Shown: piece by piece, positions 1 through 63,954 of the stretch
Layout of the letters: each line of letters starts with the position of its first letter
Numbering within the stretch: the first letter of the stretch is position 1
Assembly: GCA_016789445.1 (NCBI GenBank)
Contig: JAEUQT010000002.1
Span: forward strand, 138,321-202,320
Direction: 5' to 3'
DNA: 64,000 nt
From: a bacterium
Lineage (GTDB): Bacteria; Patescibacteriota; Minisyncoccia; Phycocordibacterales; UBA2100
Translations under genes and position numbers: made by a program
Notes under the pieces: generated by a model
What the model was told of the DNA's origin: nothing
What the model saw: only the letters and a program-made list of their open reading frames with translations
The model's database searches: none

Positions 1-3000
1 GCGTCGGCGATATCCTCTATGCTGACTCGACGGGCTCACTGGCGAAGCTCCCGATCGGCGGCGCAGGAACGGTCCTCAAAGTGCAGGGAGGTCTCCCGTC
101 ATGGCAGACGGACCTCACCTCGGGCGGCGGTGGCGGTGCGACGGCATGGTCGACGACGACCGATTCCTTGGCAATCTATCCGACCGACACGACCGATGTT
201 CTCATCGTCGGCTCCAATGCGACTGCTACAACTAATAGCATCTTTGAGGTCTTCGGCCGCTCGTACTTCTCCAACAACGTTGGCATTGGAACCACTTCTC
301 CGGGCTCGATGCTCGCCGTTTCCGGCAACATCCTCGCGAATCGCATTACTGGTGCATTCTTCACCGCGACATCCACGACCGCATCCGTCTTCCCATACGC
401 ATCCACGACGGCACTTAGTGCGACGACACTCTGTCTCGCGTCTGACTGCCGCACCTCGTGGCCGACGGATTCGGAATTCTCCACTACATCCGCAGATTAC
501 TGGAAGACACAGCGTGATTTCTTCAGCACCACCTCCGCCTCATACTTCTCCTCCATCGGCCTCGCGTGGTCCACGACCTCAGCGAACTACTATCTTTCGC
601 AGAACGGCGCGCTCGGCTTCTCAACGACCTCGAATGACTACTGGATGTCGCAGAGGAATTTCTTCTCGACGACGAGTGCGAACTACTGGTCGTCGCTCGG
701 TCTCGGTTTCAGCACCTCGTCTGCAGATGCATGGAAGGACCAGCGGAACTTCTTCTCGACTACGTCCGCCTCATATTTCCTCTCGCAGAATCAGGGTAAC
801 GCGTTTTCGACGACGAGCGCGAACTATTGGGAGACCCAGCAGACCGTACGCACTGCAGACGATCTCACCAACAACTCGATCGAAGACCTGCAGGACGTTG
901 CCGCCATGACCGAGAACTACGGCGATCTCCTCTATTGGAATGGTTCCAGCTGGGCTGATATCGCGACATCGTCGCTCGGACTCCCGACATTCTCCGATCT
1001 CTCGTCGAATCTCGCCAACTACCTCACGCTCGCAGCGTGGTACGCCACCACCACCGATGGCCTCGATGAAGGCGCCACGAATCTTTACTTCACGAATACT
1101 CGAGTACAAACCTACCTCGATACCATCGGCAAGGGATACTTCTTCTCCACGACCAGCGCTGACGCATGGAAGGATCAAAGGAATTTCTTCTCGACGACAT
1201 CGGCGGCGTACTTCACGCACAGCTCGACCACGATCGCGAAGACCTACACGGCAAATGCCTTCACTGCACTCCAGACGTTCACGAACGCTTCGTCCACGCT
1301 TTTCTCCAGCGTCTATGCGTCATCGACTGTGGCAAACATCGGCACGCTTAACCTCGGTTCAGCACTTACGGTATCGAACGGTGGTACGGGTTCGACGACA
1401 CTCACCGGCCTCCTCAAAGGCAACGGTACCGGAGCGATTCAGACGGCAATTCCAGGTGTCGATTACCTCAACTCGACCGCAGGCGACTGGACCGGCACCT
1501 TCGACGGCCAGGAGGGAAGCTACTACCTCGCGAACTCGTTCTCCACATCGAGCGCCAACTACTGGCAGACTACGCGTGACTTCTTCTCCACGACGTCAGC
1601 TATCTACTTCGCACACTCGTCGACGACGATTCCGAAGACCTACACCGCCAATGTCTTCACGGCACTGCAGAACTTCGCAAACGCATCTTCAACGCTCTTC
1701 AGTGCGTCATATGCATCCACCACCAATCTCTTCGCAAACACGGCGTCTACGTCTAACCTCACCATCTCAGCTCTGCAGAATGGACTCTTGAAAGTGAGCG
1801 CCTCCGGCGTCGTCTCGCTCGCAGTTGCGGGGACTGACTACCAGAATTTCGCGTATCCGTTCCCGTCGAATGCAACGTCGACACTTATCAGCTTCAACGG
1901 AGGTCTCACCGCATATGCCTCTTCCACCGTCGGCAACGGCACGCAGACGGGAGGTCTCACCATTTCCGGCGGTGCCACCACGACGGGAAATGCGTACTTC
2001 GCGGGGAATGTGTCCACGGCGATGATACGCGATGGTTCGAACGTCAGTGCAGTGGATGTAGCTAACAGGAGATTGCTCAGTGCCAGCACGGTGAATGCGG
2101 TGGATTTCAGCTCTGCTTCAGCCATAAAGCTTTCCCAATACACGACGAACGGTTTCCTTACGGCTTCGGGTGGCAACGGAACATTGGCTGTCGATACGAC
2201 CCTCTCGACATCCGGTGGTAACCTCGGCGTCGGCACTTCTTCGCCGTATGCCAAGCTTTCCGTCGCAGGAGAAGTAGTAGGCGCGAACTTCACGGCGACC
2301 ACCACCGCAGTCAACACCTTCCCGACGCTTATGAGTACGAACGCATCGACGACGAACTTCGGCATTACGGGCGTCACGAGCGCGCTTCTCGCCACCGACG
2401 CGAACGGTCGCGTGTATGCGACGACCTCCATTTCCTCTGGTCTTCTCAACACCACCGGCGACTGGACCGGCACCTTCGATGGTCAGGAGGGAAGCTACTA
2501 CCTCGCGAACTCGTTCTCAACGACCAGCACGAACTACTGGCAGACGACGCGCAATTTCTTCTCGACGACCTCCGCTGATTACTGGGAGACGCAGCAGACC
2601 GCGCGTACCGCAGACGATCTAACGAACAACTCGATCGAAGACCTGCAGGATGTCGCAGCGATGACCGAGAACTACGGTGACCTCCTCGGATGGAACGGAA
2701 GTACGTGGACTGATTTTGCGACCTCATCACTCGGCATTGCGATCGGGGACACCACCGGAACGCTCAGCGTCTCGCGCGGCGGCACCGGCGCGACATCATT
2801 CACGTCCGGCTCTCTTATCTATGGTTCTGGCACTGGTGCACTTCAGAGTGTTGCAACTACAACAGCAACCATCGGCGGCTCGCTCACATACTCTGGCACC
2901 TTCGGGGCACTCGTCGGCGGTTCATCCGGTACGCTCTCGCTCAACCTCGGCAATGCGAATACGTGGACTGCACTGCAGCAGTTCGGTGCAGGCGCATCTT

Positions 3001-6000
3001 CAACGGCACTCTCCGCATACAACACGATCTCCGTCGGCCGCACCTCAACGACGACCATCCGTGGTGACAACCAGGCAAGCACGTTGCCATACGCATCCAC
3101 GACCGCAATCACTGCAACGACCGCAAGCACGACGAACCTCATCATCTCCGGCCTCAACAATGGTCTCTTGAAGGTGGGTAGCGATGGCACGGTCTCACTT
3201 GCGGTAGTGGGCACCGACTACTCAAATTTCGCCTATCCGTTCCCGTCAAATGCAACGTCGACACTCTTGAGCTTCAACGGTGGCCTTATTGCAAATGCGT
3301 CGTCGAGCATCAATGCGCTCTCATCCGTCATTTCGACTTCGACGAACGCTACGTCGACGACACTCTTCGCAACTGGCTCTCGATTCATCAATGCAACCAC
3401 GACGTCGCTCGGAATCAATAGCGAGACCTTCACCGACCTCACCGGCACCGGTCTTCAGAACGTCGGTGGCGCACTCACGCTCAACGCGACGGGCGACTGG
3501 ACCGGCACCTTCGACGGTCAGGAGGGAAGTTACTACCTCGCGAACTCGTTCTCCACGACATCGGCAGATTACTGGAAGACGCAGCGCGACTTCTTCTCCA
3601 CGACTTCAGCAGTCTACTTCGTCCATTCCTCGACAACAATTCCAAAGACCTACACGGCAAATGCATTCACGGCGCTCCAGAACTTCGCGAACGCATCCTC
3701 CACGCTCTTTAGCGCATCGTACGCATCCACGACTGCGCTCTTCGCCAACACTGCCTCAACCTCCAACCTCACCATCTCCGCACTCCAGAATGGTCTCTTG
3801 AAGGTGAATGCGTCTGGCGTCGTCTCGCTCGCTGTTGCGGGGACTGACTACCAGACCTTCGGGTATCTCTTCCCGAACAATGCAACATCAACATTGCTCG
3901 CATTTAACGGTGGTCTCACCACGACGAACGCAACATCTACAAACGCTACCTCCACTAACGCGCTCTTTGCAAATGTCGGTGCCTTCTCCGTCGCTCGTTT
4001 CGGTGCCACCGCCACTTCCTCATTCGCCTCCAACGGCGCACTCACGCTTGCAACCGCGCTCACCGTCCCGAACGGCGGTACGGGTGCAACTTCTTTCACC
4101 TCCGGCTCGCTCGTGTACGGCTCTGGCACCGGCGCACTGCAGAGTGTCGCGACGACAACAGCAACCCTCGGCGGCAGCCTCTCGTACACCGGCACCTTCG
4201 GCGCGCTCGTCGGTGGTTCGTCCGGCACGCTCTCACTCAACATGGGCAATGCGAACACCTGGACTGCACTCCAGACCTTCGCAAACGCATCCTCGACGCT
4301 CTTCTCCTCGAGCTACGCATCGACGACGAACCTCTTCGCTTTCAACGCATCTACGTCTAACCTCACCATTTCAAGCGTCTCGAATGCGCTCCTCAAGACG
4401 AATGCATCGGGCCAGGTCGCTGCAGCAGTCCTTGGCACCGACTACCAGAACTTCGCGTATCCATTCGGCCTCACCGGCAACGCTACTTCAAGTCTCACAC
4501 AGTTCAACGGCGGCCTCACGGCGTATGCATCATCGACGATCGGTGCAGGTGGCCAGACGACTGGTCTCACCATCTCCGGTGGCGCAACGACAACCGGCTA
4601 CCTCAAGGTACTCAGCACGGCAACTTCAAGCTTCGCCGGCCCGCTTGCTATCACCTCATCCGGCACCTCGACGTTCGCGAACGGCATTCAGCTCTCTGCA
4701 GGCTGCTTCCGCGATGTGAACGGCAACTGTATCGGCAATCAGGACCTCTCCGCATACGTAGACGGGGCAGGCAGCGGATCGACGAATCGCGTCGCCTACT
4801 GGAGCGACAGTAATACGCTGACCTCCGATGCCGACTTCTCATTCGATGGCACGACCGTAACGGCGCGTGATCTTCTCATCCAGCACACGGCGCCGATCCT
4901 CTCCTTGAACGATAGCGATACGACGGGAACCGACTTCCGTCTCGACGTTGCCGATGGTACGGCGACCTTCAAGGCCGATGTTTCGGCAGCGTTATCAAAC
5001 GAATACTTCGCCTGGACGACCAACAACAATGAGAAGATGCGCCTCATCGAATCCGGTAATCTCGGGATCGGCGCCACAGGTCCGCGCGGCCCGCTCGATG
5101 TCATGAAGAATGGCTTCGACGTGCTTGGTACGGGAGACTGGATGGAAGTCGGTCGTTTCGTTGATGCCTCAGAGCTGAAGGGTATCAGCCTCGGGTATGA
5201 CAACAATAACGATGTCTCGCTCATCGCCTCGCATACTGGCGGTGGTGGAGAGAACGGTCTCGCGTTCTGGACATACGGCGGCGGCTGGGGTGAGCGAATG
5301 CGCTTGAGCAATACCGGCAACCTCGGCATCGGCACGACGACGCCGCAGCACAAACTCTCGATTACCGATGCGTCTGCGCCCCAGCTCTCCCTCTCCGCCG
5401 GAGCAGGCATCGCTCAGTGGACCCAGCGCAACGCAGGAGGGAACTTGTACTTCTCGACGACGACCGTCGCGGGTACGGCAACAACGACCATCGCTGCACT
5501 CGAGATCTCCGGCTCAGGATTCGGCACCACCACCGTCCGCGGCCTCAACATCAATGGTCAGGCAACCTCGACATCGAATGTCGGCTTCAACCTCACCGCC
5601 GGCTGCTATGCGATCAATGGGATGTGTATCACCGGCGGTTCGGGCAGCTCGTTCGCGTATCCGTTCAGTCTCACCGGCAACGCGACCTCGACCCTGACTC
5701 AGTTCAATGGCGGATTGACGGCGTACGCATCCACTACTATCGGCGCGGGTGGCCAGACTACAGGCCTCACCATCTCCGGCGGCGCGACGACGACCGGTAA
5801 TGCGTACTTTGCGGGCAATGTCGGCATCAACGTCACCAATCCTTCCGACCGTTTGGAGGTAGAAGGCAATATCAACCTCCGCGACGGTTACCTGACGTTC
5901 CAGAATCAGGGCTATGGTCTCTTCGGGCTCTCGACACCAAGCCTGCTCTTCTACAACGACAGCATCCGCTTCGTGAATAGCGGCAATAATCTCATGCGCG

Positions 6001-9000
6001 TCACGAGCGGCGGCAGCGTCGGCATCGGCACCACCTCCCCGTATGCAAAGCTCTCCGTCGTCGGTGATGTGGTCGGCGCGCGCTTCATCGCTACCACCTC
6101 CACGGCAAGCATCTTCCCGTATGCATCCACGACGGCACTCTCAGCGGCAACACTCTGCCTCACGGGTGATTCCTGCATCGCAGCGTGGCCGACCGGAGGT
6201 GGTGCAGCGTATCCGTTCAGTCTCACCGGTAACGCCACCTCGACCCTGACTCAGTTCAACGGCGGTCTTACCGCATATGCTTCCTCGACAATCGGCGACG
6301 GTACGCAGACCGGAGGACTTATGATTTCTGGAGGTGCAACGACGACCGGAAATTCTTATACGGGGGGTGATGCATATTTCGCAACGAAAGTCGGAATCGG
6401 GACATCTGATCCCGATCTCGTTACTTCAAATCTGACCATAGTCGGGTCGTCTGTATCGCAGAAAATCATCGATAATACCTCGGATTTCATCGCGTTATCG
6501 AAATTAAACCTTGTTGCAGGAGAGACTTTGCCCGTTGATCTAATAATTGCAGCGCAGCGCAGCGCAGCATTTCCCACCTTGGAGTTTGGTGTAATTGGTA
6601 CGCTCTCGAATCATAATCTCGTGTTTGCAACAAATGACGTAGGTCGACTTACAGTTACTGCTGGTGGCAATGTGGGTATTGGTACGACATCGCCGTCTTC
6701 ATTGCTTACTGTATTTTCCACCACATCGCCACAGCTCTCTCTCTCGGCGGGTGGAGGAATCGCCCAATGGACTCAGCGCAACGCGGGTGGCAACCTCTAC
6801 TTTTCTACAACGACACTAGACGGCCTTGCTACCACTTCCCTTGCGGCTCTCTCTATTCGAGGTGCGACAGGTAATGTGGGCGTAGGAACTTCGTCACCGG
6901 GCACGCTCTTCTCGATCGGTAATACCAACGGCGTTAACTTCACTACAGCTACCACAACCTTCGGTGGTACGGGCGGCATTGATTTGCGCAATGGCGGATG
7001 CTTCGCTATCAACGGCACCTGCATCGGCGCAGGTGGAGCAGGAGATGGTGTCGGCAACTGGTTCACCGGCACGACGAACTTCAATGCGGTTGCCAGCGCA
7101 ACGACGACACCGATCTGGCTCCAGAGTGGCGCGAATCTCTTCGCATCATCGACAGTGCGCTTCGGTAACGCCGGTGTCAGTGAGTTCTTCTACAACTCGT
7201 CCATCGGCAACCTCGGTCTTGGCACCACCACGCCGTTTGCCACGCTCCAGATCGCAACGACGACTGGCAAGAATCTCATTCTTTCTGACAGCGGCGCAGG
7301 CATCAACTTGAAGCATTGGCTCTTCTCCTCACGAGGTGGCAATTTCTACATCGGCACCACAACCGATCTCTATGCATCTTCCACCATTGCAGCGCTCACG
7401 CTCAACACCAATGGCAACCTTGGTGTCGGTACCACGACACCGTATGCGAAGCTCTCCGTCGTTGGTGGCGTCGCTGCACAGTACTTCAACTCAGACAGCT
7501 CGACGGCGACCTCCACGTTTGCGGGAGGCCTCAACGTCGGGAATGGTGCGCTTAAATATGATTACTCTGCAGGTCTCACAACCATCCAGAATCTTGCCAT
7601 CGGTGCCATCAATTTCGACGCTGACGGTGGCATTCTCTCGTGGGTAGACATGCCGGTGACTTCGAGCGCAGCCGTGGGAACCGTTGAGAGCTACTCGGCA
7701 CAGATCGATGGTACTTCCATCCTCACCGTCTACAGCGAATCGGACGGTATCGGTGGCATCAAGGCGACCAGCACCAAGATCGGTATCGGTACGACGACGC
7801 CGTTTGCAAAGCTCGCGATCCAGGCTTCCGACGTGCAGACCGCTCCACTTTTCGAGATCGCTTCTACTTCGAGTGCCACGAAGTTCCTCTCGGTTTCGGG
7901 TACCGGCTTCGGCACCACCACCCTCTCGGGCCTCAACATCTCCGGCAGCGCAACCTCCACCTCGAACGTCGGCTTCAACATCACGGCGGGGTGCTATGCG
8001 ATCAATGGGACATGTATTACTGGCGGCGGAGGCGGGGGCTCCGGCGGGGGCTCGTGGTCCACGACAACCTCGCCAGTCTCTGGCCAATTGGTGAATTATC
8101 CGAACAATGCCACGGATGTCGTTGCGATTGGCTCCAACTCGACGACGACCGCAGAATACTGGTTCGATCCGAATGCGGGCATTTCATATCTTTCTGGAAA
8201 TGTTGGTATTGGTACACTGAATCCTGTATCTTCACTTGATTTGGGTCCCGCTGCGAATGGTCGGGGTATCGCATGGGGAGGTTCTTCCGGTAACGCGAAC
8301 TACAGCAATATTTTTTCTTCTTACAGCGCAGCCGCTCTAGTACTTGCCACTGGACTTCGTGCATCAACGACCGCGGATGTTTATGAGTCCAGTTACGGGT
8401 CTTCCATCTCACGCACCGCAATCCGCTTGAACCCGTACGGTTCAAACGCGGCTGGCTCAATTCAATTCTTTACTGACAGCGCTTCTACCGTAGCCGTTGG
8501 GACTGCGATCACTCCCACGGAGCGCGTACGTATTACTTCGAATGGTAGTGTCGGGATCGGAACAAGCACGCCGTATTCTGGAGACAAACTCAGTATCTAT
8601 GGTGGCAATTTGTTCCTAGCGAATACTGCGTCCCCGCAAATCGTTCTCAAGGATGGAGCTCAATCTAACAATAATCTAGGGTTCCGCTCGGTTTCGGGCG
8701 TCGGTCACATTGGACGATTCAATGATAACGGTACTCTTTCCAGCTTTATACAGACCTTCGATCTGTCGACTGGCAATGTCGGCATAGGTTCGACGACCCC
8801 ATGGGCGAAACTCTCTATCGTCGGTAACCATGGCGTGCCGCAGTTCATCATCGCGACGACGTCTGATCCGAGCGGCGACGGTCAGCATCCGCTCTTCATC
8901 GTCCAGTCGACGACCACCGGTAAGCTCAACTACCAGCGTATCGGTATGGGTACGACGACGCAGTGGGGCAATGCAGGCCTGCGCGATCAGCTCGTCGTCG

Positions 9001-10778
9001 ATGGCCGTATCTACTCAACGTGGCGCTATGCAGGATGTGATTTCGTCGGTGGACATTTGATCGCTGCACTTACCGCAGATACCGCGAACATTTGTGGACC
9101 ATTTTCTCTCGACGTTCAAGGAACAGTGACGGGTGCGCTGGGTAGCGCGTATCCGGGCTACTATGAAATTCGCTCAGGAACGGTACCTGCTGCGAATACC
9201 GGTACGACATTCCGCACGTGGAGTCATGTTGCTTCAGCAACCACTAGCCCGGTCATGGAGGCGATGGTGCAAATCGGATCCGCCGGTACCGCAACGACAA
9301 CGCCACTTTTCCTGGTCGGTTTCTACGGATCTGCCTCAGCGACGACTACGCCAGGTACGTTACCGGCCAATGGTGCGTACTTCGTGGCAACTTCGACAAA
9401 TACGTGGCGACTCGTTACGCGTAAAACCAATGTAGAGACCATAACTGAAACGAATATCGCAACCTCATCGACCTCATTCCAGCGATTGCGTGTCGAATTG
9501 ACCGATCAGGAGGCAACGTTCTTAATCAACGGTAATGTTGTTGGTCGCCATACGACGAATATTCCAGTAACGTACCTATCTCCTGCTGCGATTTCCGCTA
9601 TCGCAGGCGGTGCGACTTCGGGCACATCGGGCGCGTACCGCGCCCTCCGTATCTCGATGTTCCGTCTTTGGGTGGATGATCCGCCAGGAGGAATACCGAT
9701 TGCTGGAACAGAAACAGAAGATCTCTATAACCCAATAGAAGGTGCCGACATAGCAGAAGCGTATCTTGCAGACGATCCTATCAAGATGATCGAAGGCAGT
9801 ATCGTTTCGAACGCAACGACCACCGAAAAACATATTGCACGTTCGAGCGGACGTTACGATTCCCAGATCATGGGCGTTATCGCAACGTCGCCAAAGATGG
9901 TGCTTGGTGATGAAGCTTCGACCACTGTACGCGTCGGCATGGTCGGTCGCGTGCCGGTCATCGTTTCCCTCGAAAACGGCGCTATCAAGAAGGGTGATCC
10001 GATCACTTCATCGAGCCTGACAGGTATCGGTATGAAGGCTCGCCGCCCAGGTGCTATCGTCGGCAAGACGCTCGCAGGATTCGACCCGGAGAATAATGTC
10101 GGCTTCTGCGATGCTGAACTTAAGCAGCAGCTCACCGACCTGGGCGTACCGGTCACCTCAGATGGCTGCTACGGCCGCGTGCTCGTCGTCCTCGACGCCG
10201 ACTTCGACATGGGCATCGGCGAGATCGTCCAAGACGCGATGACGAGCGTTACCAACTTCGGCGCGGCGATGGACGAGCTCATGAATACTGCCTTCGAGAA
10301 GGGCGCTGAGCTCACCAAGTTCGTCGTCGGCAACATTGTCGCGAAGATCGCCATCATCGAGAAGCTCTTCGTCAGGGAGACCCACACCCAGACGCTCTGC
10401 ATCGCAGATGGCAACGGCTCGGAAACCTGCATTACCAAGGCGCAGCTCGACGCGCTCCTGGCGAATGTCGGCGTCGCTGCCGCTCCGCAGCCCCAGTCGG
10501 AACCAGAAACGCAGCCGGACGGAAACGCATCCTCGACGCCACCGACCGATTCTGGAAATGGTAATGCAAGCTCAACCCCGCCTGTCGCTGAAGGCGGTTC
10601 GGGCTCCGACGGCTCGTCCGAAGCGCCAGAAGAGACACCTCCTGCAGAAGAAGCTCCTGCCGAGGAACCGCCTACCGAAGCAGAGCCTGAGCCGACCCCT
10701 CAGCCGGAACCCGAACCAGCCCCGGCTCCTGAAGAGCCAGCAGGAGAGACCGCAGCCGCCCCTGAAGATGCTTCATAG
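1..10778 (+). CDS. giant repetitive cell-surface protein, 5'-partial (frame open to window edge; >3,590 aa)
   Basis: The frame is open from nt 3, and the ORF-track start at 81 is an internal GTG. The protein is S/T/G/A-rich with hierarchical repeats. FSTTSA(D/N)YW(K/E)TQR(D/N)FFSTTSA units occur many times. GDWTGTFDGQEGSYYLANSFSTTS occurs at ~1480, ~2450 and ~3490, giving a 1-kb period. FAYPF(P/S)..NATSTL..FNGGLTAYASSTIG occurs at ~1850, 4450, 5650 and 6210, and GIGTTSPYAKLSVVG units recur. A non-repetitive C-terminal domain (~9650-10480) is followed by a Pro/Glu-rich tail. Confidence 0.8.
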   Translation, partial: VGDILYADSTGSLAKLPIGGAGTVLKVQGGLPSWQTDLTSGGGGGATAWSTTTDSLAIYPTDTTDVLIVGSNATATTNSIFEVFGRSYFSNNVGIGTTSPGSMLAVSGNILANRITGAFFTATSTTASVFPYASTTALSATTLCLASDCRTSWPTDSEFSTTSADYWKTQRDFFSTTSASYFSSIGLAWSTTSANYYLSQNGALGFSTTSNDYWMSQRNFFSTTSANYWSSLGLGFSTSSADAWKDQRNFFSTTSASYFLSQNQGNAFSTTSANYWETQQTVRTADDLTNNSIEDLQDVAAMTENYGDLLYWNGSSWADIATSSLGLPTFSDLSSNLANYLTLAAWYATTTDGLDEGATNLYFTNTRVQTYLDTIGKGYFFSTTSADAWKDQRNFFSTTSAAYFTHSSTTIAKTYTANAFTALQTFTNASSTLFSSVYASSTVANIGTLNLGSALTVSNGGTGSTTLTGLLKGNGTGAIQTAIPGVDYLNSTAGDWTGTFDGQEGSYYLANSFSTSSANYWQTTRDFFSTTSAIYFAHSSTTIPKTYTANVFTALQNFANASSTLFSASYASTTNLFANTASTSNLTISALQNGLLKVSASGVVSLAVAGTDYQNFAYPFPSNATSTLISFNGGLTAYASSTVGNGTQTGGLTISGGATTTGNAYFAGNVSTAMIRDGSNVSAVDVANRRLLSASTVNAVDFSSASAIKLSQYTTNGFLTASGGNGTLAVDTTLSTSGGNLGVGTSSPYAKLSVAGEVVGANFTATTTAVNTFPTLMSTNASTTNFGITGVTSALLATDANGRVYATTSISSGLLNTTGDWTGTFDGQEGSYYLANSFSTTSTNYWQTTRNFFSTTSADYWETQQTARTADDLTNNSIEDLQDVAAMTENYGDLLGWNGSTWTDFATSSLGIAIGDTTGTLSVSRGGTGATSFTSGSLIYGSGTGALQSVATTTATIGGSLTYSGTFGALVGGSSGTLSLNLGNANTWTALQQFGAGASSTALSAYNTISVGRTSTTTIRGDNQASTLPYASTTAITATTASTTNLIISGLNNGLLKVGSDGTVSLAVVGTDYSNFAYPFPSNATSTLLSFNGGLIANASSSINALSSVISTSTNATSTTLFATGSRFINATTTSLGINSETFTDLTGTGLQNVGGALTLNATGDWTGTFDGQEGSYYLANSFSTTSADYWKTQRDFFSTTSAVYFVHSSTTIPKTYTANAFTALQNFANASSTLFSASYASTTALFANTASTSNLTISALQNGLLKVNASGVVSLAVAGTDYQTFGYLFPNNATSTLLAFNGGLTTTNATSTNATSTNALFANVGAFSVARFGATATSSFASNGALTLATALTVPNGGTGATSFTSGSLVYGSGTGALQSVATTTATLGGSLSYTGTFGALVGGSSGTLSLNMGNANTWTALQTFANASSTLFSSSYASTTNLFAFNASTSNLTISSVSNALLKTNASGQVAAAVLGTDYQNFAYPFGLTGNATSSLTQFNGGLTAYASSTIGAGGQTTGLTISGGATTTGYLKVLSTATSSFAGPLAITSSGTSTFANGIQLSAGCFRDVNGNCIGNQDLSAYVDGAGSGSTNRVAYWSDSNTLTSDADFSFDGTTVTARDLLIQHTAPILSLNDSDTTGTDFRLDVADGTATFKADVSAALSNEYFAWTTNNNEKMRLIESGNLGIGATGPRGPLDVMKNGFDVLGTGDWMEVGRFVDASELKGISLGYDNNNDVSLIASHTGGGGENGLAFWTYGGGWGERMRLSNTGNLGIGTTTPQHKLSITDASAPQLSLSAGAGIAQWTQRNAGGNLYFSTTTVAGTATTTIAALEISGSGFGTTTVRGLNINGQATSTSNVGFNLTAGCYAINGMCITGGSGSSFAYPFSLTGNATSTLTQFNGGLTAYASTTIGAGGQTTGLTISGGATTTGNAYFAGNVGINVTNPSDRLEVEGNINLRDGYLTFQNQGYGLFGLSTPSLLFYNDSIRFVNSGNNLMRVTSGGSVGIGTTSPYAKLSVVGDVVGARFIATTSTASIFPYASTTALSAATLCLTGDSCIAAWPTGGGAAYPFSLTGNATSTLTQFNGGLTAYASSTIGDGTQTGGLMISGGATTTGNSYTGGDAYFATKVGIGTSDPDLVTSNLTIVGSSVSQKIIDNTSDFIALSKLNLVAGETLPVDLIIAAQRSAAFPTLEFGVIGTLSNHNLVFATNDVGRLTVTAGGNVGIGTTSPSSLLTVFSTTSPQLSLSAGGGIAQWTQRNAGGNLYFSTTTLDGLATTSLAALSIRGATGNVGVGTSSPGTLFSIGNTNGVNFTTATTTFGGTGGIDLRNGGCFAINGTCIGAGGAGDGVGNWFTGTTNFNAVASATTTPIWLQSGANLFASSTVRFGNAGVSEFFYNSSIGNLGLGTTTPFATLQIATTTGKNLILSDSGAGINLKHWLFSSRGGNFYIGTTTDLYASSTIAALTLNTNGNLGVGTTTPYAKLSVVGGVAAQYFNSDSSTATSTFAGGLNVGNGALKYDYSAGLTTIQNLAIGAINFDADGGILSWVDMPVTSSAAVGTVESYSAQIDGTSILTVYSESDGIGGIKATSTKIGIGTTTPFAKLAIQASDVQTAPLFEIASTSSATKFLSVSGTGFGTTTLSGLNISGSATSTSNVGFNITAGCYAINGTCITGGGGGGSGGGSWSTTTSPVSGQLVNYPNNATDVVAIGSNSTTTAEYWFDPNAGISYLSGNVGIGTLNPVSSLDLGPAANGRGIAWGGSSGNANYSNIFSSYSAAALVLATGLRASTTADVYESSYGSSISRTAIRLNPYGSNAAGSIQFFTDSASTVAVGTAITPTERVRITSNGSVGIGTSTPYSGDKLSIYGGNLFLANTASPQIVLKDGAQSNNNLGFRSVSGVGHIGRFNDNGTLSSFIQTFDLSTGNVGIGSTTPWAKLSIVGNHGVPQFIIATTSDPSGDGQHPLFIVQSTTTGKLNYQRIGMGTTTQWGNAGLRDQLVVDGRIYSTWRYAGCDFVGGHLIAALTADTANICGPFSLDVQGTVTGALGSAYPGYYEIRSGTVPAANTGTTFRTWSHVASATTSPVMEAMVQIGSAGTATTTPLFLVGFYGSASATTTPGTLPANGAYFVATSTNTWRLVTRKTNVETITETNIATSSTSFQRLRVELTDQEATFLINGNVVGRHTTNIPVTYLSPAAISAIAGGATSGTSGAYRALRISMFRLWVDDPPGGIPIAGTETEDLYNPIEGADIAEAYLADDPIKMIEGSIVSNATTTEKHIARSSGRYDSQIMGVIATSPKMVLGDEASTTVRVGMVGRVPVIVSLENGAIKKGDPITSSSLTGIGMKARRPGAIVGKTLAGFDPENNVGFCDAELKQQLTDLGVPVTSDGCYGRVLVVLDADFDMGIGEIVQDAMTSVTNFGAAMDELMNTAFEKGAELTKFVVGNIVAKIAIIEKLFVRETHTQTLCIADGNGSETCITKAQLDALLANVGVAAAPQPQSEPETQPDGNASSTPPTDSGNGNASSTPPVAEGGSGSDGSSEAPEETPPAEEAPAEEPPTEAEPEPTPQPEPEPAPAPEEPAGETAAAPEDAS

Positions 10779-10802
10779 AGAATAGTCGAGTAGAATAGCG
10801 CC

Positions 10803-11789
10803 ATGTCCGTCCGTGCGACGACGAAATGGTGGGTTGTATTGGGTATTTTTGTGTTCGGTTTCGGTGTGGGGTATCTCGTCCGCTACGCATTACCGCACGG
10901 CCACGCTGTTTCGCGCATCGGAGAAATCCGCGAGCGCAGCGGCGGCACGCTTACGAACCCGCTTCTCGAATGCACCGAATTACCGGAAAGCATCTCGGTA
11001 GGAGAACGACGTGATCTCGAGAGCAGGGTACAACGCATGATCGATGCGAAGAAGCAGGACGGCACGCTCACCGAAGCCGCTGTCTATTACCGCGATCTCA
11101 ATAACGGCCCGTGGTTCGGTATCCGCGAGGATGTGAAGTTTTCGCCTGCCTCGCTCCTTAAGGTGCCACTCGCCATGTGGTACTACTCGAAGGCAGACGA
11201 GGATCCCAGCATTCTCGAACAAGCCATCGAATTCAAAGGGCCGCGCGGCGTAAGCTACGTCAATTTCCCCCCGAGGATGCAACTTGAAGAAGGGAAGACG
11301 TATACCATCGAGGCGCTTATCCAGTACATGTTGCAGGAGAGCGATAATGACGCGGCGAACATCCTCGATGAATTCGGCGGCAGAGAGAAATCTGCCGATG
11401 TGTACCGTGATTTCGGCATCCAGCCATCCAACACGAGCGACGCATACGTCATCGACGTGCACACATACGCGTCATTCTTCCGTATCCTCTACAACGCCAC
11501 GTACATCGGCCGCGCACATTCCGAGCATCTTCTGGAAATCCTCAGTCGGTCGTCATTCACCCAGGGCCTACGCGCAGGTGTCCCGGAGAACGTCGTCGTG
11601 GCGCATAAATTCGGAGAAAAAGTGCTTGATGCGGAAACGAACACCTACCAGCTCCATGATTGCGGTATTGTCTATACAGGGAATACGCCGTATTCTCTTT
11701 GCGTCATGACGCAGGGGAAGGACATCGCCCAGCTTGCCAGCTTCATCAAAGACGTCTCCGCTCTCGTCTTTAGCGAGGTGACCCGATAA
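10803..11789 (+). CDS. beta-lactamase-fold (class A-like) serine hydrolase, membrane-anchored
   Basis: N-terminal TM helix. SxxK motif (SLLK), SDN motif (ESDNDAANIL), a KTG-like HKFGE, and HDCGIVY are present. Confidence 0.65.
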   Translation: MSVRATTKWWVVLGIFVFGFGVGYLVRYALPHGHAVSRIGEIRERSGGTLTNPLLECTELPESISVGERRDLESRVQRMIDAKKQDGTLTEAAVYYRDLNNGPWFGIREDVKFSPASLLKVPLAMWYYSKADEDPSILEQAIEFKGPRGVSYVNFPPRMQLEEGKTYTIEALIQYMLQESDNDAANILDEFGGREKSADVYRDFGIQPSNTSDAYVIDVHTYASFFRILYNATYIGRAHSEHLLEILSRSSFTQGLRAGVPENVVVAHKFGEKVLDAETNTYQLHDCGIVYTGNTPYSLCVMTQGKDIAQLASFIKDVSALVFSEVTR

Positions 11790-31124: not shown

Positions 31125-31222
31125 GAAGGTGAGACGGGGGTGGGGCCCCGTCGCAAGGCCGGACCGGGCGTAGGCGAGGGAGGCGGGGTCGCGCAATTCG
31201 CCAGCAGGCGAATATGCGTGAC
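31125..31222 (+). repeat. conserved intergenic structured element, family 1, copy A
   Basis: GGTGAGACGGGGGTGGGGCCCCGTCGCAAGGCCGGACCGGGCGTAGGCGAGGGAGGCGGGGTCGCGCAA is followed by a bulged hairpin at 31192-31218 (loop AGCAG) and then TGAC. Near-identical blocks occur at 34496 and 48806, with compensatory stem changes. Confidence 0.7.
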
Positions 31223-34495: not shown

Positions 34496-34590
34496 GGTGA
34501 GACGGGGTTGGGGCCCCGTCGCAAGGTCGGACCGAGCGTAGGCGAGGGAGGCGGGGTCGCGCAACATCGCAGCAGCGATGTATGCGTGAC
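34496..34590 (+). repeat. conserved intergenic structured element, family 1, copy B
   Basis: Same ~65-nt core as copy A with 3 substitutions. The hairpin at 34560-34586 has a conserved AGCAG loop and a compensated stem (CATCGC/GCGATG versus TTCGCC/GGCGAA in copy A). A further perfect 10-bp hairpin follows at 34591-34613. Confidence 0.7.
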
Positions 34591-37269: not shown

Positions 37270-37378
37270 GGTGGATGCGGAAAATGCTTCTCTCGGGTAA
37301 ACCCGTCTTCCCAGCTGGGAAAACGGGCTGATCCTCGCCAGCTGCGGGGCCCCTCGCGAAGCATTTTCCGCATCCACC
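37270..37378 (+). repeat. conserved intergenic structured element, family 2, copy D
   Basis: A perfect 21-bp stem (GGTGGATGCGGAAAATGCTTC / GAAGCATTTTCCGCATCCACC) clamps a 67-nt core. The core is ~90% identical to the core at 55532-55600. Confidence 0.75.
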
Positions 37379-37418
37379 CGGTGTTGGTGGGGAGGTTAGG
37401 AAAGGCTATACTCCCACC

Positions 37419-38150
37419 ATGCAGCGGGGCCACATCCACCCAATTTCGAGCCTCATTCGCGAGGCCAACGCCATCTTCAGTAAGATGGGCTTTGCGTTCG
37501 CCGAAGGACCTCTCGTTGAGGACGAGTGGCACAATTTCGATGCCTTGAACGTCCCGAAGGATCATCCGGCCCGCGACATGCAGGACACCTTCTTCCTCAA
37601 AGATGAGAAGGAGACCGTGCTCCGTACGCACACCTCGCCGGTCCAGATCCGCTATATGAAATCGCAGATGGAGAAAGGGATCCTTCCTCCGTATCGCGTC
37701 ATCGCGCCGGGCAAAGTCTTCCGCAACGAAGCCACCGACATGACGCATGAGGCGGAATTCTTCCAGATCGAAGGGTTTGCCGTCGGTGAAGACATCACAC
37801 TCGCCAACCTCAAAGGCACGCTCGAAAGATTCTTCAAGGAACTCTTCAAGGGCGCTTCGGTTGAGATCCGTTTCCGTCCGAGCTTCTTCCCGTTCACCGA
37901 ACCATCGGTGGAAGTCGATATGCGACTCGTAGGTGAAGGCGTGCCGGAGAAACTCAAAGACCGATGGATCGAGATGATGGGTGCAGGCATGATCCATCCG
38001 AATGTCCTGAAAAACGCGGGCATCGATCCGGCAAAGTATCGTGGTTTCGCATTCGGTATGGGATTAGACCGTCTCGCCTTGCTGCGTTGGGGCATCGACG
38101 ACGTGCGCCACATGCACTCGGCAGACCTCCGGTTTATCAACCAGTTCTAG
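37419..38150 (+). CDS. pheS: phenylalanine--tRNA ligase alpha subunit (short, core-only form)
   Basis: Class II motifs (FRPSFFPFTEPS, GAGMIHPNVL). 243 aa with no N-terminal extension. Confidence 0.85.
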   Translation: MQRGHIHPISSLIREANAIFSKMGFAFAEGPLVEDEWHNFDALNVPKDHPARDMQDTFFLKDEKETVLRTHTSPVQIRYMKSQMEKGILPPYRVIAPGKVFRNEATDMTHEAEFFQIEGFAVGEDITLANLKGTLERFFKELFKGASVEIRFRPSFFPFTEPSVEVDMRLVGEGVPEKLKDRWIEMMGAGMIHPNVLKNAGIDPAKYRGFAFGMGLDRLALLRWGIDDVRHMHSADLRFINQF

Positions 38151-47497: not shown

Positions 47498-48805
47498 ATG
47501 AACTCGACTTCAACGCGTTCGCAGATCGTTCTCGGTCTTCTCGTTGGTTTCGTTGTGTTCGCAGGTCCGTCTGCGGTCCAGGCTGCCGATCTTGGTGGCT
47601 GGGGCTGGAGCGATTACGGTTCCTACGACAGTTGGTCTGATTACGGCTCGTACGATACGTGGAGCGACTATGGTTCGTATGATACCTGGTCTGATTACGG
47701 TTCTTACGACACGTGGTCTGACTACGGTTCGTATGGCTCCGGCACGTACTACGACGACGGGTATTACTACGACGATGTAGCTGGTACGTACTATGACGAT
47801 GTCTATGGTACTTACTACGACGATTCGTACGGCACCTATTACGATGATTCGTACGGTTCATACTACGATGACTCGTATTACTACGGTGGTGGTTCCTACG
47901 ACTACGGTTGTGGTTCCTCGTGCGGCGGCTCGTGGTACACGCCTTCGTACTCGACTGGTTGCGGTTCGTGGTGCGGCACCGGCGGCGGACAGTATGTCAC
48001 CCCCCGCTTCACGGCTCCGAGCTCTTCGTACACGAACATCGTGACGAACAATGTCGACAACTCGCAGGACAACGACAACTACAACTACATCACGAACATC
48101 GACAACTCGATCCGTGACAGCTTCAACAACTACAATAGCGGCAACACCTCTATCGTAGTCACTGCTCCTCAGACGCCGGTTCACACGACTCCTGCTCCGT
48201 ACTGCACGATCACGCATGCACAGTACGGTGGCTATGGTTCGGGTGCGTATCTCTCGTGGACTTCCACGAACGCATCGAGCGCATACCTCTCGAACGTCGG
48301 TTCTGTCGCAGTCTCGGGTTCCCAGACCGTCTACGCGCATGGCTCGCAGACGTACACGCTCACGGTCTACGGTTACAACGGTCAGACGGCAACGTGCGCA
48401 ACCTCGGTCTACGGCCAGGTCTACGTTCCTCCGACCTATAACCCTCCGTACGTGTCCCTTACGCAGATCCCGTACACTGGTTTCGACTTCGGTCCTATCG
48501 GTAACGCGATGTACTGGGTCTCGCTTCTTGGATTCGCAGCAGCAGGTGCCTACCTCATGATCTACTATCGTGGTGGTGCGCTTGCCTTCGCAACCGCAAT
48601 GGTTCCGGCACGTAAGTTCGCTCCGGTCGTTGCTCCGAAGGCTCCGATCCTCGTTGAGCGTGAAGCACTTGCGCTCTCGCACGATGAAGTGAAGGTCCAG
48701 CCGATCGTTGCATCTCTTCGCAAGGCAGCCGGTACTCTCGATACGATGGCAATCGTTTCCTCGAAAGATGGTTCGATGCCGCGCATCGTGATCCAGCGTG
48801 CTTAA
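47498..48805 (+). CDS. secreted Tyr/Asp-rich tandem-repeat surface protein with C-terminal IPYTG + TM segment
   Basis: Signal peptide. Five 27-nt SDYGSYDTW repeats and YYDDSYG(T/S) repeats (47611-47900). Beta-rich domain shared with the 49032 product. LTQIPYTGFD, then a hydrophobic helix, then YYRGG, then an ~80-aa tail. Confidence 0.65.
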   Translation: MNSTSTRSQIVLGLLVGFVVFAGPSAVQAADLGGWGWSDYGSYDSWSDYGSYDTWSDYGSYDTWSDYGSYDTWSDYGSYGSGTYYDDGYYYDDVAGTYYDDVYGTYYDDSYGTYYDDSYGSYYDDSYYYGGGSYDYGCGSSCGGSWYTPSYSTGCGSWCGTGGGQYVTPRFTAPSSSYTNIVTNNVDNSQDNDNYNYITNIDNSIRDSFNNYNSGNTSIVVTAPQTPVHTTPAPYCTITHAQYGGYGSGAYLSWTSTNASSAYLSNVGSVAVSGSQTVYAHGSQTYTLTVYGYNGQTATCATSVYGQVYVPPTYNPPYVSLTQIPYTGFDFGPIGNAMYWVSLLGFAAAGAYLMIYYRGGALAFATAMVPARKFAPVVAPKAPILVEREALALSHDEVKVQPIVASLRKAAGTLDTMAIVSSKDGSMPRIVIQRA

Positions 48806-48893
48806 ACGGGGGTGGGCCCCGTTTAAGAGCCGGACTGAGCGAAGGCGAAGGAGGCGGGGTCGCGCAATTTGCCAGCAGGCAAATATGGGTGAC
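48806..48893 (+). repeat. conserved intergenic structured element, family 1, copy C
   Basis: GGGGGTGGGCCCCG...GGAGGCGGGGTCGCGCAA, then a hairpin at 48863-48889 (TTTGCC/GGCAAA, AGCAG loop), then TGAC. More diverged than copies A and B. Confidence 0.6.
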
Positions 48894-55496: not shown

Positions 55497-55508
55497 CCCG
55501 ACATTATA

Positions 55509-55623
55509 CCGGAGCGGTGCCGCACATGCTCTCTCCGGGTAAACCCGTTTTTCCTGCTGGAAAAACGGGCTCATCCTCGCCAGCTGCGGGGCCCCTCCGT
55601 GAGCATGTGCGGCACCGCTCCGG
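55509..55623 (+). repeat. conserved intergenic structured element, family 2, copy E
   Basis: A perfect 23-bp stem (CCGGAGCGGTGCCGCACATGCTC / GAGCATGTGCGGCACCGCTCCGG) clamps a 69-nt core nearly identical to the copy D core. It fills the dnaE/rnhB divergent intergenic region. Confidence 0.75.
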
Positions 55624-55675
55624 CTGCGCTGTGGATTTCATGCTTTATTCCTCATTTGCTGGGTAAGATGAAAGG

Positions 55676-56278
55676 GTGCAATGGCTGATTGGAGTAGACG
55701 AGGCTGGGCGAGGTGCGCTCGCCGGACCCGTCTGTGTCGGAGCCGTCCTCTATCCCTCGGATTTCGATTGGCGCGAAATTTTTACGCTCATCACCAAGCG
55801 CGGCGAGCCGAAGCTGCGGGATTCCAAGCAGCTTTCCGCGCAGCAACGCGAGATCCTCTATGCGGCTATTACTGCACACGGTCGACTGAGGCATGCGAGC
55901 GCACTCGTGGAAGCCGAAGTCATCGATTCGATCGGTATCTCCAATGCAGCGAGAGAAGCTGCTGCGATAGCGGTGCAGCGTCTCGGTATCGGTCCCTCGC
56001 GCGTGAAGGTACTGCTCGATGCAGGCCTTTCGGTCTCCTCCGAATGGGATCAGGAATCCTTCGTACGCGGCGACGAGACGATCCCTGCCATCTCTTTCGC
56101 CTCGATGATCGCCAAGGTCACCCGCGACACCCACATGGAAGAGCTTGCGGGTACGCATGATCGGTACGGATTCGCCCAGCACAAGGGCTACGGGACGGCA
56201 GCGCACACCTTGGCCATCCGCCAACACGGGCTTGTGCCCCTCATCCACCGCAAGACCTTCTTGACAGCCTACGCTTGA
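55676..56278 (+). CDS. rnhB: ribonuclease HII
   Basis: IGVDEAGRGALAGPV active-site motif. ~200 aa. GTG start. Confidence 0.85.
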   Translation: MQWLIGVDEAGRGALAGPVCVGAVLYPSDFDWREIFTLITKRGEPKLRDSKQLSAQQREILYAAITAHGRLRHASALVEAEVIDSIGISNAAREAAAIAVQRLGIGPSRVKVLLDAGLSVSSEWDQESFVRGDETIPAISFASMIAKVTRDTHMEELAGTHDRYGFAQHKGYGTAAHTLAIRQHGLVPLIHRKTFLTAYA

Positions 56279-56348
56279 TTGTCGGCTGATACGGGTGTAG
56301 GGTGTTCCAAGCGCCTTATGTTGAGGCGGAAGAGCGAAAGAGGGGATA

Positions 56349-56630
56349 ATGAGTAATCGTCTAACTGCAGCCGCAGAAGATCGGGCCTATTTCGAACGGC
56401 ATCTTTCCCCGGAGTACAAGACTGCGGAGAATGTGCAGAAGTGCATGTGCGTCGGATGCGATCATTTCGATCAGCATAAATTCGGCGCTCGACGCTGTTC
56501 GCGAAGGGCAGAATGCGAGCGGCTGCGGTCTCAAGGTAAAGACGGCTGCTATAAGCGACGTCAGAGAGGCCACACGCTGGTCCTCAAATCTGACATAATT
56601 CCTCACGTTCAAAGCGGTGTAGTCCTCTAA
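56349..56630 (+). CDS. hypothetical small Cys-rich protein
   Basis: SD AAGAGGGG upstream. CMCVGCDHFDQH...C..C cluster. No family assigned. Confidence 0.35.
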   Translation: MSNRLTAAAEDRAYFERHLSPEYKTAENVQKCMCVGCDHFDQHKFGARRCSRRAECERLRSQGKDGCYKRRQRGHTLVLKSDIIPHVQSGVVL

Positions 56631-56708
56631 CTGCACCTTCCAGAGCGACCGGACCCCCGGTCGCTCCTTTCTTTGCTTTTTTCCGGGAAATACGTATACT
56701 AGCCGCCT

Positions 56709-56975
56709 ATGGTAGTTCGAATGCGGAGGAACCGCTCACAGACAGCAAAGCGCCGGAGCCATCATGCTCTGAAGGCGGTCCGTGCCACCCGCTGCGAATG
56801 CGGGGCACTCCGCCTGCCGCACACCGCCTGCGCGTCCTGCGGTAAGTACAACGGCAAGGTCGTTATCGACGTCGTCGGCCGTGCTGCCCGCACCGCCCGC
56901 CGCGACAAGCGCCGCGAGAAGGAGCTCATGGCGAGCGGCCAGAAGGTTGATACAAAAGAAGAAGCAGCGAAGTAA
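56709..56975 (+). CDS. rpmF: 50S ribosomal protein L32 (with C-terminal basic extension)
   Basis: RRSHHAL. Zn-ribbon CxxG..CxxCG. KYNGKVVIDV matches the L32 signature. Confidence 0.7.
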   Translation: MVVRMRRNRSQTAKRRSHHALKAVRATRCECGALRLPHTACASCGKYNGKVVIDVVGRAARTARRDKRREKELMASGQKVDTKEEAAK

Positions 56976-57125
56976 TTCGCAACTCCCCACGAAACGGCGC
57001 GCCGATGGCGCGCCGTTTCTTTTTCTGTCCACAGTCCGAAAGAAAGGTCGATTTCGGTTGCTCATGCTGCTGAGGTATACTTTCTCCATGAGTTGCTCTT
57101 TCCGTCGCGGGACAGTGCTATAAGT

Positions 57126-58090: not shown

Positions 58091-58777
58091 ATGGATTTTG
58101 CGCCCTTCGAGGCAAAGATAGGATTCACGTTCACCGACAAACGCCTTATCGAGGCGGCATTCACGCACCGTTCCTATCTCAACGAGAACCGTGCAAGCGC
58201 GCGCGAGCACAATGAACGCCTGGAATTCCTTGGTGATGCGGTCTTAGAACTCGTCGTCACCGAATTCCTCTATAAGAAGTACCCGGAAAAGCCGGAAGGG
58301 GAATTGACCGCGTATCGTGCGGCACTCGTGAATACGAACTCGATCGCTGATGCTGCCGCGAAACTCGGCATGAATGACTTCCTTCTTCTCTCACGCGGCG
58401 AAGCGAAGGATACCGGCCGTGCGCGCGGCATCATCCTTGCGAATGCATTCGAGGCGATCATCGGTGCGATCTATCTCGATGCGGGATACGATGCGTCGTA
58501 CAAGTTCATCGAGGCGCAGCTTTTCCATAAGACCGATGATGTCGTCGAGAAACGCTTGTGGCAGGACGCGAAGAGCCGCCTGCAGGAAATCGCGCAGGAG
58601 AAAGTCTCCGTCACGCCGACCTATGAATTGGTGAATCAGTCGGGTCCCGATCACGATAAGCGTTTCGTGGTCGCAGTTTTTCTCGGCTCAACGAAGACCG
58701 CGCTCGGCGAAGGTCGCTCCAAGCAGGAAGCAGAGCAGGATGCGGCAGGGAAGGCGCTGACCGCGCGGGGCTGGTAG
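58091..58777 (+). CDS. rnc: ribonuclease III
   Basis: RNase III signature ERLEFLGDAVLELVV. C-terminal dsRBD. The track ORF start at 57944 overlaps nusB, so ATG 58091 is preferred. Confidence 0.85.
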   Translation: MDFAPFEAKIGFTFTDKRLIEAAFTHRSYLNENRASAREHNERLEFLGDAVLELVVTEFLYKKYPEKPEGELTAYRAALVNTNSIADAAAKLGMNDFLLLSRGEAKDTGRARGIILANAFEAIIGAIYLDAGYDASYKFIEAQLFHKTDDVVEKRLWQDAKSRLQEIAQEKVSVTPTYELVNQSGPDHDKRFVVAVFLGSTKTALGEGRSKQEAEQDAAGKALTARGW

Positions 58778-61113: not shown

Positions 61114-61232
61114 ATCCCGTTAGAAATCGCGGACGCACGAACTTCATGTTGCATTCAAAGGTCGGGCTTTATCCCTATAGCAAAGTACGGTGCGGAGACT
61201 CGAACGTGTCCGCGTCCTATTTCTAACGGGAT
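61114..61232 (+). mobile_element. ORF-less miniature element with GIY-YIG-element-type TIRs (MITE-like)
   Basis: ATCCCGTTAGAAAT (61114-61127) and ATTTCTAACGGGAT (61219-61232) form a perfect 14-bp IR. The last two bases provide the A and T of the smc ATG start codon. Confidence 0.55.
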
Positions 61233-63871: not shown

Positions 63872-63954
63872 ACCCCGTTAGAGAGTGCGTCGGCAGAGCT
63901 TGCTGTTCATTAATGAATCGCGATATCCGGATGAGATATTCTCTCTAACGGGGT
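63872..63954 (+). mobile_element. ORF-less miniature element with GIY-YIG-element-type TIRs (MITE-like)
   Basis: ACCCCGTTAGAGAG (63872-63885) and CTCTCTAACGGGGT (63941-63954) form a perfect 14-bp IR. It lies 6 nt after the rpsP stop. Confidence 0.5.

Follow-up and report, generated by a model that had tools for sequence, protein, structure and literature searches.

The two large hairpins found in the 64,000-nt stretch of DNA analysed here (the window), which we call copies D and E, are tentatively explained as a lineage-restricted dispersed repeat that was inserted at these sites, is constrained in its structure and is recognised as a folded single strand; we hold this reading at somewhat less than even confidence. 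Three copies are known, and the repeat is best explained as confined to a narrow subset of Candidatus Kaiserbacteria (Paceibacterota, CPR). Copy D is a 109-nt hairpin (37270-37378) with perfect 21-bp arms (37270-37290 and 37358-37378), in the order GGTGGATGCGGAAAATGCTTC, 67-nt core, GAAGCATTTTCCGCATCCACC. Copy E is a 115-nt hairpin (55509-55623) with perfect 23-bp arms (55509-55531 and 55601-55623), in the order CCGGAGCGGTGCCGCACATGCTC, 69-nt core, GAGCATGTGCGGCACCGCTCCGG. No strand is assigned to either copy or to the elements within them. A repeat finder and an exact inverted-repeat search agreed on the perfection of the arms, and the sequences, coordinates and stems that the initial annotation had given (21 bp around a 67-nt spacer, 23 bp around a 69-nt spacer) were borne out. 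A 25-nt block of the core occurs exactly twice in the window, with 0 occurrences expected by chance, and no other occurrence of either arm was found in the window when up to three mismatches were allowed. Relative to shuffled sequences both copies fold strongly on either strand (z-scores of -8.8 to -11.7 as RNA and of -8.7 to -12.0 as DNA). In no copy, including the third one described below, is the - strand fold less stable than the + strand fold.

The D and E loci were also recovered, via exact-protein look-ups, from one JGI metagenome and several independent SRA assemblies. D has the same sequence in seven of eight other contigs of the same species from independent assemblies, the eighth (L012) differing by one C>T in the right arm, and E is identical to the window in all three other contigs that span it (L017, L018 and L020). 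As both copies are the same across independent contigs from other samples, they are not assembly artefacts. The change in L012 lies at the position matching window 37377, one base short of the end of D's right arm, and leaves an uncompensated G·T there; it may reflect a true polymorphism or an error of assembly. Two contigs, L019 and L021, begin inside the right arm of E, and the short-read contigs L013, L019 and L021 end inside D or E (at about window position 37326 and at 55612-55613), which probably reflects loss of coverage or graph breaks at a strong hairpin or repeat.

A two-anchor pattern scan of a metagenome collection yielded a single true further copy, F, on a 1.1-kb soil-metagenome contig between divergent yqeY and rmuC genes; the YqeY encoded beside it is Kaiserbacteria-like, and the F hairpin measures 111 nt. 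When anchored on their cores, D, E and F align without a gap over 97 nt, from TG to CA (alignment A4), and this homologous unit spans 37276-37372 in D, where our covariance model R1 scores 112 bits, and 55518-55614 in E. Three blocks, 40 nt in total, are 100% identical in all copies: columns 20-30 (GGGTAAACCCG, invariant block 1, at 37295-37305 in D), columns 49-53 (CGGGC) and columns 57-80 (TCCTCGCCAGCTGCGGGGCCCCTC, invariant block 3, at 37332-37355 in D). The rest of the unit is about 60-65% identical. Pairwise identity is 77/97 between D and E, which share a genome, 79/97 between D and F and 75/97 between E and F, and the fact that D and E are no closer to each other than either is to F fits copies that had already diverged when they were inserted.

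The alignment also corrects the earlier description of the two stems as sharing no sequence, which was wrong. Their inner 15 bp are homologous: of 14 scored pairs, 8 do not vary (TG..G.A.A.GCT), and where the copies differ, changes on one arm are matched on the other. Homology is missing only from the outer ends, over 6 bp in D, 9 bp in E and 6 bp in F, yet these are perfectly complementary as well. Conservation at the ends of the unit comprises the terminal TG...CA and an inner ATGCT(T)C/GA(A)GCAT, with compensated differences at 5/14 arm pairs. In all three copies the stem comes to about two helical turns (21 bp in D, 23 bp in E and 15+4 bp in F).

We evaluated pairing on a model of four helices, namely the closing stem P1, a 3-bp GGG/CCC helix, P2 and P3. 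P2 is an 11-bp hairpin with an AGCT loop in D (37302-37327; 55544-55569 in E), and P3 (37333-37349 in D; 55575-55591 in E) lies within invariant block 3. Standard pairs filled 97.1% of the pair cells, compared with 87.9% in shuffled controls and 38-55% when the partners were slid by 1-3 columns. Seven pairs are changed on both sides, five of them in P1 and two in P2, and one-sided changes number 0; none of 500 shuffles attained any of the observed covariation measures. The covariation of the inner hairpin between copies, which had been noticed from D and E, was thereby upheld. Coming from only three sequences, the covariation falls short of statistical proof and is suggestive, being consistent for P1 and P2. 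Neither P3 nor the GGG/CCC helix varies among D, E and F, and hence neither gives a covariation signal. The proposed mutually exclusive pairings, GGG/CCC against CCCG/CGGG, are available by sequence, but the bases involved are all invariant and so provide no evidence of a switch.

The few irregular pairs are of interest for the molecule that folds. On the + strand P1 and P2 contain just three C·A and not a single G·U; all three C·A read as G·U on the - strand, and one of them is in P2 of D. Together with the more stable - strand folds they are a weak hint of folding on the - strand, as the probability that all would fall on one strand by chance is about 1/4. Across about 95 pair cells of P1 and P2 wobble pairs are nearly absent. 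Such scarcity fits a constraint at the DNA level or on two strands, or templating of one arm by the other, better than the ordinary evolution of RNA helices, and it places the pairing of P1 and P2 closer to a DNA palindrome or a both-strand constraint than to typical RNA helices.

Searches of sequence collections did not connect the element to any described family. Rfam gave nothing over the whole window at gathering scores and only chance miRNA and snoRNA matches at the two loci at E<=10, so that the suggestion of a known ribozyme or RNA family, self-cleaving ribozymes, 6S, SRP and Y RNA among them, was not sustained even at this permissive threshold. ARAGORN found no tRNA or tmRNA gene at D or E. 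A blastn search ('distant' mode) of D against phages and plasmids returned only chance matches, as did a 20-mer scan of 185,579 reference genomes (GTDB species representatives), in which four matches in GC-rich genomes lacked the remainder of the core; three scans of viral contigs gave nothing or chance matches. The search for further copies thus succeeded in the metagenome collection, with F, and not in the reference genomes. The R1 covariance search of about 190 kb of non-redundant related loci detected no further or diverged copies. No coding capacity is conserved between the copies, whose frames have different stop codons from copy to copy, and peptides from all open frames of the three cores had no matches among 5.8 billion proteins. 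Several short flank similarities were within chance and were set aside: between the D arm and the pheS start, between the F arm and GCAG...CTGC of the empty site, and a CATGCT downstream of E. We also disregarded a 24-bp perfect inverted repeat in L015, a fragmented assembly, where it overlaps pheT-like sequence.

All three copies lie 0-40 nt upstream of -10 boxes. Of 34 curated gene starts, 17 have a TANNNT box 5-9 nt upstream of the start codon, as opposed to 3.2% of all ATG/GTG positions, and the box is often GGTATAAT (examples are the starts at 10803, 12801, 20248, 23115, 36432, 37419, 42060, 55496 and 55676). The box leaves no room for a Shine-Dalgarno leader, and therefore leaderless or near-leaderless transcription appears, from the promoter layout, to be common in this organism. 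D follows the stop codon of a 277-aa gene and precedes the -10-like box of pheS, a TATACT on the + strand (37407-37412) that is 6 nt before the ATG at 37419. E is located between divergent -10 boxes, as is F. On one side of E the TATAAT of dnaE (55503-55508, - strand) abuts the left arm; the dnaE ATG at 55496 agrees with the 1053-aa gene call of L017. On the other side the TAAGAT of rnhB (55664-55669, + strand) is 40 nt past the right arm and 6 nt before the GTG at 55676. F is separated by 18 nt from each -10 box, that of yqeY and that of rmuC. As D is upstream of the TATACT box, it is not in the pheS leader or 5′ UTR, and the placement of D in the leader region of pheS by the initial annotation is unlikely.

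Within the copies there is no TANNNT hexamer on either strand in D, E or F, and neither a sigma-70-like promoter nor a U-tract terminator was found at D or E. The window genes that have Pfam results are housekeeping genes or unannotated, and among the scanned or Pfam-annotated genes, which cover about 10.8-64 kb, no mobility gene turned up, whether a reverse transcriptase, a transposase, an integrase or an invertase. A 3565-aa repeat ORF at 81-10778, probably a giant surface protein, contains many diverged internal repeats, both FSTTSADYW-type 72-nt units and units of about 200-300 nt with 60-82% identity; tandem 27-nt coding repeats (WSDYGSYDT-like) also occur at 47606-47740, in a 435-aa ORF (47498-48805). 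An RNase III gene is present at 58091-58777 on the + strand, with the Pfam domains Ribonuclease_3 and dsrm on the matching gene of L018. Downstream of rnhB the strains are polymorphic: some contigs with an identical RnhB carry rpmF (L32) there (L017 6353-7274, and L020), where the window (56278-57100) and L018 have ORFs of 93 and 117 aa. The closest named homologues of PheS and YqeY are in Candidatus Kaiserbacteria/Paceibacterota MAGs.

Comparison with relatives indicated that the element behaves as an insertion, as orthologous sites have short spacers. In four related species with PheS 88-89% identical (L014, L037, L038 and L039) the spacer between the upstream stop codon and the start annotated for pheS is 12-18 nt, versus 153 nt in the window, and in the two whose spacers were read (L014 and L037) a CATACT box directly follows the stop codon. 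The element is thus absent from the D site in four of five related species, and the fifth (L035/L036) has a different insert there. At the F site, the yqeY/rmuC spacer is 44 nt in two relatives with YqeY 83-85% identical (L022; L023-L028), with 18 nt between the two -10 boxes, versus 167 nt in F, where 18 nt, the 111-nt hairpin and another 18 nt separate the boxes. Neither arm of D or of F occurs at the relatives' empty sites, which leaves the idea of a foldback element that copies its target as an inverted duplication conceivable but unsupported, and no consistent direct repeat flanks the copies. The empty-site relatives, at 83-89% protein identity, are too diverged to define exact insertion junctions and, for the same reason, leave deletion from an ancestrally occupied site as a formal possibility. 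The element is an insertion or a lineage-specific retention and no conserved regulator of pheS, dnaE or rnhB. A riboswitch or other cis-regulatory leader is accordingly unsupported: the copies are upstream of the -10 boxes and not in a 5′ UTR, E and F are between divergent promoters, and there is no conservation upstream of orthologous pheS genes, four of the five relatives lacking the element at the D site. What stands of the structured-RNA pattern seen initially is the conserved centre, a closing helix that is free in sequence and always paired, and the covarying internal hairpin.

Two further observations were made at the pheS loci of relatives. The insert in L035/L036, from a Kaiserbacterium with PheS 89% identical, is unrelated to D, AT-rich and 149 nt long (L036 934-1082, the same as L035 625-773). 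Its fold is strong (z = -10) and consists of a three-way junction of 95 nt with a long stem and, after it, a perfect hairpin of 17 bp. R1 does not detect the insert, whose opening 10 nt (TGCGGAGAAT) are similar to the start of the D unit (TGCGGAAAAT). In L014 an inserted PemK-family toxin gene (10721-11173) separates pheS from pheT, two genes that adjoin each other in the window.

The element resembles the REP/REPIN, BIME, ERIC, RUP and Correia repeats in being about 100 nt long, non-coding, intergenic, dispersed and able to form long hairpins, and it shares with REP/REPIN-type repeats a presence that varies between related genomes. Correia elements, too, are found beside promoters, and RNase III cleaves their hairpin RNA. 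In REP/REPIN-type families, however, the arms or terminal repeats are conserved and the centre varies, whereas this element combines an invariant centre with arms whose changes are compensated, and on this reversed pattern we rejected REP/REPIN as a class. Also unlike those families, the element shows no direct target duplication, has no identified RAYT or transposase partner and apparently has a very low copy number. With MITEs it has in common that there are multiple copies, three in two species, with empty sites at both tested loci. A direct target-site duplication of fixed length was not found, the flanks being inverted repeats of 6, 9 and 6 bp, and no direct repeat common to the copies was seen beside the 97-nt unit or the whole hairpin. 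Covarying helices around an invariant centre are, besides, the classic signature of a functional RNA and not of a MITE.

Integron attC sites offer a different parallel, as their sequence varies while a single-strand hairpin is kept; they are recognised by their structure and span 57-141 nt. They differ in their variable centre and in having RYYYAAC/GTTRRRY sites, a cassette array and an integrase, none of which accompanies the invariant centre found here: the boundaries contain no RYYYAAC/GTTRRRY, and the copies are isolated between housekeeping genes. Retron ncRNAs were rejected as well, the downstream genes being pheS, rnhB and rmuC with no adjacent reverse transcriptase, and so were intrinsic terminators, since D and E show no terminator-like site and E and F are at gene 5′ ends. 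The stems at which RNase III processes 16S and 23S rRNA are like the element in that a long closing stem of about two turns, free in sequence, surrounds a conserved core. The near-perfect stem of about 20 bp expected of an RNase III substrate is present in all copies (21, 23 and 15+4 bp), and the enzyme is encoded in the window (58091-58777). rRNA processing stems usually contain G·U pairs and bulges, though, and the stems here appear to have none and no evident promoter. The correction of quasi-palindromes through intrastrand template switching (the Ripley model, with the thyA hotspot of E. coli) would explain both the perfect arms and the spread of complementarity by a variable 6-9 bp into the flanks; it describes how mutations arise and does not define a family of elements, and it would leave the invariant core unexplained.

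These observations lead us to favour, with the reserve expressed at the outset, the following account of an inserted, structure-read repeat. The 97-nt TG...CA unit would have been inserted into short intergenic spacers just upstream of -10 boxes, and what is conserved would be the folded single strand, in which P1 encloses a three-way junction with the covarying P2 and the invariant P3. Machinery acting in trans may read the invariant blocks within this fold; candidates are a mobilising enzyme that acts on single-stranded DNA and, with less likelihood, a factor that binds or processes RNA, and only copies that keep the fold would persist or spread. From the perfect arms and the complementarity that continues 6-9 bp into non-homologous flanks we infer that one arm templates the other, so that arm perfection would be maintained at the DNA level and not by RNA-level selection alone. 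The simplest explanation for both the perfection and the variable flank spread (6, 9 and 6 bp) would be intrastrand template switching, or synthesis primed from the hairpin, during insertion or later. The equal distances between the copies and their apparently recent insertion suggest a pool of already diverged source copies. Mobility in trans, the strand or molecule that folds and the upkeep of the arms are all inferred from these patterns. Against a mobile repeat, only three copies are known, and activity as a mobile element is thus a proposal drawn from sequence comparison; moreover, the ends are not conserved as transposase-bound ends usually are, and a partner enzyme was not found in the annotated window.

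The most serious competitor is a structured small RNA with the three-way-junction core, transcribed most plausibly from the - strand, which we regard as possible but unlikely. RNase III is proposed to release or control it by cutting its 19-23-bp closing stem, and the invariant blocks to bind a protein, a ligand or a target. The invariant centre with covarying P1 and P2 is what such an RNA would show, and a stem of about two helical turns in all three copies, an RNase III gene in the window, and the coincidence that all three non-Watson-Crick pairs of P1 and P2 are G·U on the - strand, where the folds are more stable, point the same way. Transcription is harder to account for. D could receive read-through from the upstream 277-aa gene, but the E and F spacers lie between divergent promoters whose transcription moves away from them, no -10-like hexamer is found in the copies or consistently placed beside them on either strand, and there is no terminator. 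The near absence of G·U pairs from P1 and P2, the lack of the element in the nearest relatives at both tested sites and the lack of a matching Rfam family also weigh against an RNA. Somewhat more broadly, the element may belong to a class of structured nucleic acids not yet described from CPR bacteria, a reading that we consider doubtful, in either of two versions. As a small RNA, the invariant three-way-junction core would be excised by RNase III from the perfect two-turn stem; as a single-stranded DNA that folds into a substrate for recombination or transposition, its arms would be re-templated from each other at each move, and this would leave inverted and not direct duplications in the flanks.

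The position of every copy 0-40 nt upstream of -10 boxes raises another explanation, that the host has co-opted the element as a cis-acting DNA or RNA module, for example one whose hairpin or cruciform insulates or buffers closely packed promoters or blocks read-through into the following gene without a U-tract. A bidirectional block or a cruciform would require a hairpin as perfect on one strand as on the other, which is the case here, and every population sampled carries D and E as fixed features. The other strongly folded insert, at the same spot upstream of pheS in another species, could indicate a position at which a structured module that serves the host is favoured. We nevertheless judge this improbable: it leaves the 40 invariant internal nucleotides unexplained across species, most relatives manage without the element, no terminator-like tail follows the hairpin, and the 67-nt non-palindromic spacer makes cruciform extrusion kinetically unfavourable. 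An inverton, in which a site-specific recombinase flips a promoter segment between inverted repeats, would suit an intergenic location upstream of genes and perfect inverted repeats with a conserved inner 7 bp. It is highly improbable here, as all independent contigs spanning D or E show one and the same orientation, the copies have no internal -10-like hexamer (TANNNT) on either strand, the 67-69-bp spacer is very short for synapsis and no recombinase is found among the window genes with Pfam results.

The window contains other hairpin repeats. One, 'Family 1', is an intergenic repeat of about 95 nt at 31128-31222, 34496-34590 and 48799-48893, with copies 78-86% identical. One of its hairpins covaries as ATTCGCC-AGCA-GGCGAAT, CATCGC-AGCA-GCGATG and ATTTGCC-AGCA-GGCAAAT, and its 5′ hairpin as GACGGGG...CCCCGTC versus TTAAACGGGG...CCCCGTTTAA. 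It was considered as kin of D and E on account of the common strings GGGGCCCCG and GGCGAGG, which are in reverse orientation; R1 does not detect it, and it was treated as separate. Two perfect inverted repeats, at 61114-61232 (91-nt spacer) and 63872-63954 (55-nt spacer), have related 14-nt arms (ATCCCGTTAGAAAT and ACCCCGTTAGAGAG), one immediately upstream of smc and the other immediately downstream of rpsP, and they look like a third hairpin-repeat family, with conserved arms.

The genomes of CPR/Patescibacteria are tiny and tightly packed, and their non-coding elements are little known. The element described here reverses the ordinary pattern of bacterial palindromic repeats, having an invariant centre, compensated arms and complementarity that spreads into the flanks, and its placement corrects the idea of riboswitch-like leaders at pheS and dnaE/rnhB. 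We supply a three-sequence seed for a covariance model with which a census can be taken. If the element is an RNA, it would form a new family with a built-in handle for RNase III. If it is mobile, it would point to propagation that is read from structure and templated by the hairpin, a mode of which we know of no prior description.
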